IMG/VR virus record: IMGVR_UViG_2698536355_000008
Origin: a virus
Lineage: Duplodnaviria; Heunggongvirae; Uroviricota; Caudoviricetes
Reading direction: 5' to 3' (one strand)
DNA length: 7,297 nucleotides
Shown here: in pieces, positions 2,450 through 6,985 of the stretch
Numbering within the stretch: position 1 is the first letter of the stretch
How the letters are laid out: each line of letters opens with the position of its first letter
Program-made: the position numbers and the translations under genes
Notes under the pieces: generated by a model
Database searches by the model: none
Told to the model about the DNA's origin: nothing
Seen by the model: the letters and a program-made list of their open reading frames with translations, nothing else

Positions 2450-2480
2450 ATGATTTTTGCTGAAGATGGCGACATGATGT

Positions 2481-2509
2481 TTGCATTTTTCAAAAAATAT
2501 GGATAAAAT
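2481..2509 (+). promoter_or_regulatory. Candidate sigma70 late promoter (PR'-like) just downstream of Q
   Basis: TTGCAT (2481-2486), 17-nt spacer, TAAAAT (2504-2509), beginning 32 nt after the quuQ stop. This matches the lambda arrangement in which PR' follows Q. Predicted start site near 2516. Confidence 0.4.
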
Positions 2510-2554
2510 TTTTTCAACGATGGGCTTTGTATACCCGACGTTAAGAAAAAGTAG

Positions 2555-2585
2555 AAAACCCGCTGATGAGCGGGTTTTGTGCTTT
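2555..2585. terminator. Intrinsic terminator (tR'-like), probably bidirectional
   Basis: Stem AACCCGC (2557-2563), loop TGATGA, stem GCGGGTT (2570-2576), then a T-run TTTTGTGCTTT. An A-run on the 5' side gives a T-run on the opposite strand. It lies about 40-70 nt downstream of the candidate late promoter. Confidence 0.6.
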
Positions 2586-3216: not shown

Positions 3217-3223
3217 GATTGCG

Positions 3224-3383
3224 TCGGTTTGAAGAACAGACGATATACGAAGTAGTTTACTAAAGCAGTTCTCATTTCAGGTGTTATTCACTTATTCCTT
3301 CTTTGAGTCTCTCCAATTAAGTACGAAGTCGTTTCTGTTATGCAAACCATTTATGCCGAAAGGCTCAAGTTAAGGAATGTAGA
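3224..3383 (+). promoter_or_regulatory. cspB long 5' untranslated leader with cold-box-like and upstream-box elements
   Basis: About 160 nt lie between the predicted start site and the ATG. GGTTTGAAGAACAGACGATATACG (3226-3249) resembles the cspA cold box. GCCGAAAGGC (3355-3364) is identical to the conserved element in the cspA leader. Confidence 0.55.
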
Positions 3384-3599
3384 ATGTCAAATAAAATGAC
3401 TGGTTTAGTAAAATGGTTTAACGCTGATAAAGGTTTCGGCTTTATTTCTCCTGTTGATGGTAGTAAAGATGTGTTTGTGCATTTTTCTGCGATTCAGAAT
3501 GATAATTATCGAACCTTATTTGAAGGTCAAAAGGTTACCTTCTCTATAGAGAGTGGTGCTAAAGGTCCTGCAGCAGCAAATGTCATCATTACTGATTAA
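3384..3599 (+). CDS. cspB: Major cold-shock protein CspB
   Basis: 71-aa product [38 protein letters not shown]... carries the RNP1-like (KGFGFI) and RNP2-like (VFVHF) motifs. Shine-Dalgarno TAAGGAA precedes the ATG at 3384. Confidence 0.9.
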
Positions 3600-3880
3600 A
3601 ATTCATCGCTCGTCTGTATACGATAACGAAGAAGGCTGATGCCTGAGTAGAGATACGGACAGAGTAGTGAATATTGGATCTCTTTAATAAAAAGTAAGGA
3701 GGTCCAATACATGAAACAATGGCTAGCATATTTGGCAAAATCTTAATCAGGAAAAGTATGCTAACCATTGTGGTGAAGTGCAGGTTTGCTGCATGAATAG
3801 TTTTACAGCAGAAGCTAACTGCTGGCATGGCAAAACAAAGTGCGTAAGTGGATGACTCCCACAAAAAGCACCACAATCTC

Positions 3881-3906
3881 AAACCCGCTCAGGCGGGTTT
3901 TTTATT
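3881..3906. terminator. Intrinsic terminator, bidirectional, shared by the convergent cspB region and ynfU
   Basis: Stem AAACCCGC (3881-3888), loop TCAG, stem GCGGGTTT (3893-3900), then a T-run. An A-run precedes it. It lies 57 nt beyond the ynfU stop on the minus strand and about 280 nt beyond the cspB stop on the plus strand. Confidence 0.7.
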
Positions 3907-3962: not shown

Positions 3963-4133
3963 TCAGGCTACAGCTTTAAGATTTGTCTGGAATACTTTGT
4001 TGCAATGAGGGCAGATCAAAAGGGCACCTTTTTGTACTCTTGAAAAACTGTGTTCTGACTCTTGGGTGCAGTTTGGGCAGGAACATTTAACGAGATAATT
4101 ACGGCGTGATTTTGAGTTTTTACGTTCTGACAT
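3963..4133 (-). CDS. ynfU: Small zinc-ribbon protein (YnfU-like, 56 aa)
   Basis: Taking the internal Met of the 73-aa track ORF gives MSERKNSKSRRNYLVKCSCPNCTQESEHSFSRVQKGALLICPHCNKVFQTNLKAVA. It has two Cys pairs (CxCxxC and CxxC) and a basic N-terminus. The 56-aa length and location match my recollection of Qin YnfU. Confidence 0.6.
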   Translation of the reverse strand: MSERKNSKSRRNYLVKCSCPNCTQESEHSFSRVQKGALLICPHCNKVFQTNLKAVA

Positions 4134-4352: not shown

Positions 4353-4568
4353 ATGAAATCAATGGATAAGTTAACAACAGGTGTTGCCTATGGCACATCG
4401 GCGGGTAATGCTGGTTTCTGGGCATTGCAGTTACTCGATAAAGTAACTCCGTCACAGTGGGCTGCAATCGGTGTGCTGGGTAGCCTGGTTTTTGGCCTGC
4501 TGACGTATCTGACAAATCTTTATTTCAAGATTAAAGAAGACAGGCGTAAGGCTGCGAGAGGAGAGTAA
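4353..4568 (+). CDS. essQ: Class II holin / pinholin (S21-like) with dual-start motif
   Basis: 71-aa product beginning MKSMDK, with Met1 and Met4 as in phage 21 S (S71 antiholin, S68 holin). Two hydrophobic segments. GGTGAGG lies upstream of the ATG at 4353. It is immediately upstream of an endolysin. Confidence 0.85.
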
Positions 4569-6483: not shown

Positions 6484-6571
6484 GGTAGACAATATTACAA
6501 ACCATATTCACTTTAGATGCCCGTGTTGTCATGGTTCCCAGTATAGAACATCATCTTTTGATGTTTCTGAC

Positions 6572-6682
6572 ATGAATCCTTTCGGGGCAAAATGTATCTT
6601 TTGTAAATCAATGATGATTACATTTGATAATATTTCACAATACTTAAATGCCAGCCGTCTGTCGTTGGATTTAAAAAAGTGA
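6572..6682 (+). CDS. Small zinc-ribbon-like ORF downstream of cspI; 36 aa from the only ATG, but the Cys motif extends upstream (see findings)
   Basis: The frame is open from 6479 to the TGA at 6680-6682 and encodes ...RCPCCHGSQYRTSSFDVSDMNPFGAKCIFCKSMM.... The only in-frame ATG (6572) lies after the first Cys cluster. An intrinsic terminator follows 6 nt after the stop. Confidence 0.3.
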   Translation: MNPFGAKCIFCKSMMITFDNISQYLNASRLSLDLKK

Positions 6683-6711: not shown

Positions 6712-6829
6712 CTTGGTGTCTATTCGATGGATACTCACATACTACGGTAACATCATGAAAAAAATCATAGTTTTTTTTAACTCTGAACCAGCAGTGGTAG
6801 TGCCAGCGATGACTGGAGTTAACACCATC

Positions 6830-6985
6830 ATGCGTGAATATCCAAATGGCGAAAAAACACACCTTACTGTAATGGCCGCAGGGTTTCCATCTCTGACCGG
6901 AGATCATAAAGTCATTTATGTAGCCGCGGATCGACATGTTACTTCAGAAGAAATTCTGGAAGCAGCAATAAGGCTCTTGAGTTGA
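6830..6985 (+). CDS. ynfN: Small hypothetical protein (YnfN-like, 51 aa; an in-frame upstream ATG at 6755 would give 76 aa)
   Basis: MREYPNGEKTHLTVMAAGFPSLTGDHKVIYVAADRHVTSEEILEAAIRLLS, with GGAG at 6815-6818 upstream of the ATG at 6830. The 51-aa length and position after cspI match Qin ynfN from memory. The protein sequence itself is not verified. Confidence 0.45.
   Translation: MREYPNGEKTHLTVMAAGFPSLTGDHKVIYVAADRHVTSEEILEAAIRLLS

Follow-up and report, generated by a model that had tools for sequence, protein, structure and literature searches.

The window in this analysis (the whole 7,297-nt stretch of virus record IMGVR_UViG_2698536355_000008) is the late region of the cryptic lambdoid Qin prophage of Escherichia coli K-12, in reverse orientation relative to NC_000913.3 (genome position = 1644938 - window position), and encodes, in order, ydfU, ydfT (the Q antiterminator gene), ynfS (-), cspF (-), cspB (+), ynfU (-), essQ, ydfR, rrrQ, rzpQ and cspI. 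The element described here occupies positions 3600-3880, in the interval between the cold-shock gene cspB and ynfU. This interval carries no RefSeq annotation in K-12, while the neighbouring small proteins ynfU, ynfS, ynfR and ynfQ, found by ribosome profiling or tagging, do have annotation in NC_000913.3. The Rfam cspA thermoregulator model (RF01766) aligns to 3223-3615 with 158.8 bits and leaves the proximal terminator of cspA-type genes unmatched, indicating that the long tail 3' of cspB is real.

A first-pass annotation made from the sequence had described, in this ~280-nt tail between the cspB stop codon at 3599 and an intrinsic terminator, a Shine-Dalgarno (SD) sequence, TAAGGAGGT, at 3695-3703, placed 7 nt 5' of an ATG at 3711, which opens an 11-codon open reading frame (ORF; MKQWLAYLAKS plus stop, 3711-3746) and is followed by two perfect stem-loops. 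It had proposed a small-protein gene, a leader-peptide-like regulator or a small RNA (sRNA), and not inert spacer. The tail, the SD and the micro-ORF are present in the sequence, as are the hairpin TGCAG-gtttg-CTGCA at 3779-3793 and the terminator, for which a terminator scan gives a stem at 3881-3900 and a T run to 3906; the second hairpin, CAGCAG-aagctaa-CTGCTG, also exists, at 3806-3824 and not, as had been written, at 3807-3825, one base off. Two features had gone unseen: the SD lies wholly within a 14-bp stem, and the stem-loops are two arms of a larger four-way junction. The features of the locus are:

3384-3599, + strand: cspB coding sequence (RefSeq annotation), with stop codon TAA at 3597-3599
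3601-3672, + strand: HP1, a long hairpin (minimum free energy fold; covariation on alignment A4)
3612-3620 / 3652-3660, + strand: conserved helix of HP1, with an apical stem at 3633-3636 / 3641-3644
3673-3686 / 3695-3708, + strand: HP2, a 14-bp hairpin (fold; inverted repeat I4), with the SD TAAGGAGGT in its 3' arm
3709-3715, + strand: single-stranded linker CAUGAAA, containing the micro-ORF start codon and the RNA 3' ends at 3712 and 3714
3711-3746, + strand: micro-ORF, overlapping the linker as well as the loop and 5' strand of P0; in Qin-type copies only
3721-3766, + strand: P0 hairpin, helical at 3721-3730 / 3757-3766 and variable towards its apex (covariation on alignment A3; inverted repeat I1, 18 nt)
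3767-3877, + strand: four-way junction P1-P4 (covariation, RNAalifold, covariance model)
3767-3775 / 3869-3877, + strand: P1, which closes the junction
3778-3783 / 3789-3794, + strand: P2, the first of the two hairpins noticed earlier
3806-3811 / 3819-3824, + strand: P3, the second of them, with the 7-nt loop AAGCUAA
3848-3852 / 3858-3862, + strand: P4
3810-3820, + strand: invariant unpaired block AGAAGCUAACU, in the P3 loop
3838-3848, + strand: invariant unpaired block AAGUGCGUAAG, between P3 and P4
3881-3906, no strand assigned: GC-rich hairpin and T run (terminator scan), outside the conserved element and absent in many lineages
3963-4133, - strand: ynfU, convergent with cspB
1667-2449: ydfT, the Q antiterminator gene

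The + strand RNA is built of HP1, HP2, the short linker, P0 and the four-way junction, and both HP1 and P0-P4 are supported by compensatory changes across lineages in which CspB is only 65-87% identical to that of K-12. Helices P1-P4 were 96.1% paired in alignment A2 (36 distinct sequences), with nine pairs changed on both sides, and pairing fell to 23-60% in slid-partner controls; the P0 helix was 87.5% paired in A3, with four pairs changed on both sides, and across alignments P0 and the junction together had 94-96% of cells paired and 9-13 pairs changed on both sides. RNAalifold, run independently, returned the same P1-P4 helices, and the fold of 3755-3906 has a predicted energy of -48.9 kcal/mol (z = -2.5). 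The covariance model of P0 and the junction (R1) had a single match in the window, at 3709-3881 with 159 bits, and none after cspI. G·U pairs are frequent, for example at the closing pair of P2 in 21-23 sequences, and correspond to A·C mismatches on the other strand, indicating that the RNA is the cspB-sense strand. Compensatory helices and strand-specific G·U pairs, the general marks of a structured non-coding RNA, are both present, and the earlier view that the interval is not inert spacer holds. Conservation in related prophages, which the first-pass annotation had set as its own test, was found for its hairpins, which as P2 and P3 are kept by paired changes among homologues, and not for the micro-ORF.

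The two unpaired blocks in the junction were unchanged in 28 of 28 matches obtained with a pattern of P1 and P2 only, and in the relatives found by BLAST; no conserved complements of these loops, as potential cis targets, were found within 1.5 kb. P0 can possibly be extended by pairing of ACAAU (3716-3720) with AUUGU (3767-3771), at the cost of the base of P1. This linker stretch (ACAAU in Qin) mimics the 3' strand of P1 and can pair with the P1 5' strand in all lineages (5.0/6 versus 4.2/6 in cross-lineage controls, a modest excess), and the extended-P0 and P1 folds are predicted to lie within ~0-2.4 kcal/mol of each other in 9 of 11 lineages. An RNA thermometer was considered and rejected, as the predicted gap between the two folds has no consistent trend from 37 to 10 °C. 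Pairing between the 5' and 3' untranslated regions (UTRs) through a 13-nt direct repeat (3339-3351 and 3757-3769) was also rejected, because the repeat is conserved in no other lineage.

Upstream of the linker, the HP1 helix was 85% paired in alignment A4 (18 sequences), with 10 of 13 pairs changed on both sides and slid controls at 25-46%, and its sequence is wholly different between lineages with pairing kept; HP1 is missing from PHB10-type copies. It contains a conserved asymmetric internal loop (CGAUAACGAAGAA / UGAGUAGAG) with an AGUA/GAA signature, which from its sequence may be a module of the loop-E or sarcin-ricin type. HP2 alone has a predicted energy of -18.3 kcal/mol (z = -6.2), and the fold of 3597-3714 one of -43.2 kcal/mol (z = -6.5). 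The HP2 variants among Qin-type copies either lie in the loop or preserve pairing (a C-to-U change opposite G; GGAGG to GGAGA, by which U·G becomes U-A), and the latter weakens the SD while pairing is kept. The site of HP2 is taken by a hairpin unrelated in sequence in the Cyrano, L104 and PHB10 types; HP2 is therefore conserved in position and not in sequence. Two loci, L142 (Escherichia sp. E1V33, with an 82-nt deletion) and L080 (with different upstream DNA), are without HP2, the micro-ORF and P0 and keep the four-way junction; they are natural variants that could be used as ready-made deletion mutants.

BLAST detected the 3' part of the interval at 75-82% identity 3' of csp genes in ~100-kb phage-plasmids (phage Cyrano and plasmid p503440_100) and in phage PHB10, and pattern scans added viral contigs and ~30 species representatives, all of them Enterobacteriaceae. 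The genera with the element are Escherichia, Shigella, Kosakonia, Enterobacter, Kluyvera, Phytobacter, Superficieibacter, Raoultella, Leclercia, Atlantibacter and Pseudescherichia, and it is also present on phage-plasmids of Klebsiella and Citrobacter. Every true copy has a cspB-like gene (65-100% amino acid identity, tblastn) on the same strand, with the element 130-230 nt downstream, and the usual neighbours are a divergent cspF-like gene upstream and, often, a convergent ynfU-like gene downstream. The contexts comprise lambdoid late regions, SSU5-like phage-plasmids (E. coli, Klebsiella, Citrobacter), int-proximal phage DNA and chromosomal islands, in which copies adjoin H-NS/LysE or UmuC/AcrB genes; the structured RNA moves with csp genes on prophages, phage-plasmids and genomic islands alike. 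Most E. coli copies are at least 99% identical, and across lineages the variable stretches between modules have diverged past alignment while the modules were kept.

An abundant RNA 3' end lies in the middle of this structure. Published Term-seq data from MG1655 at 37 °C (Adams et al. 2021, PMC7815308, Supplementary file 1) list an 'orphan' 3' end at genome position 1641226 or 1641224 (-), which is window position 3712 or 3714, a mapping verified against the printed flanking sequence. Position 3712 is the U of the micro-ORF AUG and 3714 the base after it, 4-6 nt past HP2, and the sequence before the end is AAUACAU(GA), without a U tail. The average reads were 604,404 (LB, optical density (OD) 0.4), 1,233,565 (LB, OD 2.0) and 2,464,295 (M63), and the same-strand values for comparison are 1,235,725 and 3,948,680 for CsrB and 56,964 for the cspB 5'-UTR product (PMC7815308). 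The end at 3712/3714 therefore has one-third to one-half of the CsrB reads and ~10 times those of the cspB 5'-UTR attenuation product, and in the part of the table examined 2 of 23 minus-strand ends have higher counts. K-12, the best-annotated bacterium, carries here an RNA 3' end of this abundance that is unannotated and is adjoined by an uncatalogued conserved junction RNA. Among the options raised in the first-pass annotation, the small RNA is the one supported by this abundant and discrete end in vivo.

The reading favoured here, at a probability of roughly 0.6, is that 3600-3880, on the + strand, is a conserved non-coding RNA of several domains, namely the structured 3' UTR of a cspB-type cold-shock mRNA, and is processed into a stable fragment. 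It most likely acts in cis, as a 3'-UTR module determining where cspB RNA ends and how stable it is. Transcripts passing the cspB stop codon would be cut or trimmed back in the 7-nt linker (3709-3715); HP2, together with HP1, would then block 3'-to-5' exonucleases, and a stable RNA composed of the cspB 3' end and HP1-HP2 would accumulate. P0 and the junction would be a recognition or switch module, probably governing whether and where processing happens, a role suggested by the invariant unpaired nucleotides and the two near-isoenergetic folds. The locus offers a testable case of cold-shock gene regulation through the 3' UTR, earlier work having centred on the 5' UTR.

Several points weigh against this reading. 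RNase E prefers RN|WUU, and the linker, judged by its bases, appears to misfit this preference. Both invariant blocks first served as search patterns, which is offset only in part by the BLAST relatives and the independent pattern search, and all sequences come from one bacterial family, so that some of the covariation reflects ~5 deep types and not many independent events. The Term-seq ends come from 37 °C, whereas cspB is expressed in cold shock; minus-strand counts in that table systematically exceed plus-strand ones, making abundance comparable only within a strand; and among the curated entries there is no cspB-strand 3' end at the 3881-3906 terminator (no minus-strand entry at 16410xx). 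Rho-dependent termination is reported at 37 °C for a region near the start of the cspB ORF, at window position 3401 (genome 1641537 -) (PMC7815308). Heavy read-through is thereby less obvious, and the fragment would consequently need far greater stability than the mRNA body. The abundant RNA could also start at its own promoter instead of arising by read-through from cspB.

Further observations concern transcript ends around the element in the same data set. A further abundant 3' end at 37 °C lies within the cspB 5' UTR, at window position 3304 (genome 1641634 -) (PMC7815308), and this end and the termination region at 3401 fit attenuation of cspB in warm conditions. The end at genome position 1641060 (+), window position 3878, belongs to the convergent ynfU transcript (PMC7815308). 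The 3881-3900 hairpin may serve mainly ynfU at 37 °C.

An extension of the favoured reading, which is offered tentatively and is itself more doubtful than probable, is that P0 and the junction are a new class of bistable RNA sensor carried on mobile cold-shock cassettes, toggling between the extended-P0 and closed-P1 folds and so deciding how the cspB transcript is processed. If so, the toggle could respond to a cellular signal, for instance the amount of Csp RNA chaperones, a small ligand or protein partner, or RNA dimerisation at the palindromic AAGCUAA loop, and the fold chosen would lead either to a long-lived RNA capped by HP1-HP2 or to read-through and degradation. Cold-shock protein output, and phage late transcription through the element, would thereby be coupled to the RNA-folding state of the cell. 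It is also conceivable that the abundant HP1-HP2 RNA has a regulatory function of its own.

An alternative raised in the first-pass annotation, a small protein or leader peptide, for which ribosomes load at TAAGGAGGT and translate MKQWLAYLAKS, with the peptide or its translation being regulatory, is very unlikely. The SD is a perfect 9-nt match 7 nt from the ATG, the micro-ORF is intact in most Qin-type copies, and its translation would unwind P0 and could in principle modulate the RNA fold. The exact 9-mer occurs once in the window; 0.96 matches with at most one mismatch are expected by chance, so the SD by itself is only mildly unusual. The SD, ATG and ORF are limited to Escherichia Qin-type copies and are replaced by other sequence in the Cyrano, L104, L131, PHB10 and L093 types, all of which retain the RNA structure. 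Peptide variants among Qin-type copies (MKQWLAYLAKS, MKQWPAYLAKS, ..AIT, ..AKP and one with TGA at codon 4) reflect six substitutions that are all non-synonymous or nonsense, with none synonymous; SD variants GGAGAU and GGCGGU exist, and of the micro-ORF the lineages have in common only GGCYAGCAUA, which forms the 5' strand of P0. The -18 kcal/mol stem of HP2, the variants of which preserve pairing and not SD strength, sequesters the SD, and the dominant 3' end in vivo falls on the AUG and splits the SD from the micro-ORF. The micro-ORF is without annotation in NC_000913.3, yet ynfU, ~220 nt away, came from ribosome profiling of initiation complexes that screened intergenic ORFs of at least 8 codons. 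As for a leader peptide, the next gene in Qin, ynfU, is encoded on the other strand, and a terminator precedes the lysis genes; the Rfam Trp_leader model reaches 21.7 bits against a threshold of 41 (E = 0.78), and over 3822-3906 only, which is the terminator. The micro-ORF is probably incidental and lineage-specific, and the element is rated here as a new family of structured RNAs associated with mobile cold-shock genes and not as a small-protein gene.

The own-promoter possibility, in which an independent sRNA gene starting near the end of cspB gives a ~105-nt trans-acting HP1-HP2 sRNA and possibly a second RNA of P0, junction and terminator, is unlikely but deserves more weight than translation of the micro-ORF. 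It would account for an end at 3712/3714 that is far above the cspB 5'-UTR product in spite of Rho termination within cspB, a TAAAAT hexamer can be read at 3597-3602, and the invariant unpaired blocks could act as seed regions. The promoter scan, however, found no + strand sigma-70-like site at 3400-3900, the blocks have no conserved complement nearby, the abundant end lacks the U tail of a classical Hfq-type sRNA, and the element is always tied to a csp gene, at a constant spacing, which fits a UTR better than a free-standing gene. That the interval is neutral spacer or a decaying remnant, looking conserved through recent horizontal spread of the csp cassette, would agree with the near-identity of most E. 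coli copies and the confinement to Enterobacteriaceae; it is highly improbable given that the helices change by paired substitutions between divergent lineages, with unpaired blocks invariant and pairing lost in the slid controls, and that the regions between modules have diverged beyond alignment while the modules were retained. Coding in another frame, either a + strand 41-aa 'hypothetical protein' of PHB10 or a minus-strand ORF of 91-97 aa in phage PhiR42_1, rests on automatic annotations and on the frame ..CDEVQVCCMNSLKAEANC.., which is open in several lineages. It is hardly credible, as 1-nt indels within the best-conserved part put the L093, L138, L144, L145, L003 and L104 types out of frame, start codon and SD are not conserved in the alternative frames, and no type but Qin has the minus-strand ORF open, the longest frame elsewhere being at most 56 aa and of different sequence. 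Equally remote is the leader of a lambdoid late promoter, in which a pR'-tR' unit located after Q and before the lysis genes would give a 6S/StxS-like RNA. The element does have the Q gene ydfT on one side and the holin gene on the other, with an intrinsic terminator at its end, but the same RNA is found 3' of csp genes in non-lambdoid settings (phage-plasmids beside dnaE, next to an integrase, chromosomal islands), and a better candidate for pR'/tR' lies right after Q.

That candidate unit, at 2480-2582 (+), comprises a promoter-like site at 2480-2509 and a symmetric GC hairpin at 2555-2578, which can also terminate ynfS/cspF on the opposite strand. In the Term-seq data, an RNA 3' end on the window + strand maps to 2582 (genome 1642356 -) with 55,000-123,000 reads, and the unit implies a short RNA of ~65 nt resembling lambda 6S or StxS.

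A second micro-ORF, MLTIVVKCRFAA, lies at 3758-3796 (+), 5 nt after an AGGA, and extends over P1, P2 and the 3' strand of P0. Many lineages have a comparable open frame (M..LTDVMKCR.AA-stop). The start codon lies within the P0 helix, no SD is conserved and the changes track RNA pairing, so this micro-ORF is probably another by-product. A textbook SD and ATG can arise as by-products of RNA structure, which calls for caution in the search for small ORFs.

Among the 4227 models of Rfam 15, the window matches only cspA, apart from the sub-threshold Trp_leader on the terminator, and none matches the element; at four diverse homologous loci there was also no match on the element, the best score there being 32 bits for STnc370 (threshold 54), over the terminator portion of L131. 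The literature searched contained no account of an E. coli cspB 3' UTR or cspB sRNA. The cspA thermoregulator spans 5' UTR, ORF and proximal terminator, and is, like the element, a structured RNA of CspA-family cold-shock mRNAs in the same transcript; the element differs in that it begins where that model ends, has no similarity to it in sequence or structure, and takes the place of the proximal terminator. Known 3'-UTR-derived RNAs of enterobacteria, such as CpxQ from cpxP, SroC and DapZ, end at the intrinsic terminator of the gene with a Hfq-binding U tail. The element resembles them in coming from an mRNA 3' end, accumulating far above its parent mRNA and having conserved unpaired sequence that possibly acts in trans; unlike them, its abundant end follows an internal hairpin without a U tract, with a conserved 160-nt domain beyond, and classification as an Hfq-type 3'-UTR sRNA, which would end at an intrinsic terminator with a U tail, was rejected for the 3712/3714 end. 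Repetitive extragenic palindromic (REP) elements and terminator stem-loops stall PNPase and RNase II, and HP2 is likewise a stable stem with an RNA end 4-6 nt downstream, which is the expected footprint of a stalled exonuclease; in contrast to a simple stabiliser it is embedded in a larger conserved RNA (HP1, P0 and the four-way junction).

With riboswitch-like and bistable RNAs the element shares a multi-helix junction, unpaired nucleotides more conserved than the stems, and an upstream strand that mimics the P1 3' strand, giving two folds predicted to be near-isoenergetic; unlike riboswitches, it is 3' of the associated gene, has no known ligand and no conserved expression platform, and its predicted energies show no consistent temperature dependence. 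As in leaders of the trpL type (RF00513), hairpins and a terminator follow a short ORF equipped with an SD; the ORF here, in contrast, is not conserved, has no regulatory codons and is followed by no downstream gene on the same strand. Other classes were considered and rejected. For a tRNA or tRNA-like structure, ARAGORN found none, and the junction spacers (11, 23 and 6 nt) and loops misfit. Self-cleaving ribozymes (hatchet, hepatitis delta virus-like, twister-sister, hammerhead) gave no Rfam match at E up to 1-5, and Term-seq, which captures 3'-OH ends and not 2',3'-cyclic phosphates, would further argue against self-cleavage. A role as a RyhB sponge, suggested by a paper in which cspB appears among the polyadenylated RNAs associated with RyhB, was not borne out: the best duplex has -18.8 kcal/mol against a shuffled mean of -19.7, no excess over background.

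Both prophage csp genes of K-12 precede genes for small zinc-ribbon proteins of the CxxC...CxxC type: ynfU converges on cspB, and ynfQ comes after cspI in the same orientation. Genes like ynfU go with the cspF-cspB-RNA cassette in many genera. ynfQ is absent from the ORF list of the window and was placed at ~6494-6682, downstream of cspI, by mapping from L001. A homologue of YnfN of 75 aa lies ~60-200 nt 3' of the element on the same strand in L093, L134, L138, L144, L145, L148 and L154 (Enterobacter, Leclercia and Pseudescherichia), where the RNA is intergenic, in the order csp, RNA, ynfN-like, and not terminal; in Qin, ynfN is at 6713-6985, after cspI-ynfQ-ynfR.

Among individual loci, L139 (Raoultella lignicola) has tandem AAGCCTGAA units at ~4500-4560 in place of the 5' half of the junction and is probably a degenerate copy. 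The enterobacterial cspF-cspB cassettes in two metagenome-assembled genomes, L155 (labelled Veillonella parvula), which is nearly identical to E. coli Qin, and L148 (labelled 'Proteobacteria bacterium'), are most likely mis-binned or contaminating contigs. The Rfam sRNA STnc100 matches above threshold in two unrelated lineages (L131, 2941-3070, and L004, 4288-4489; 68 and 53 bits), 0.5-1.2 kb downstream of the cassette. In the E. coli genomes H1-H5, H93 and H94, whose alignments to the window break off at 3906 (query position 307), IS200C or IS1 is inserted directly after the terminator T run (3906/3907).

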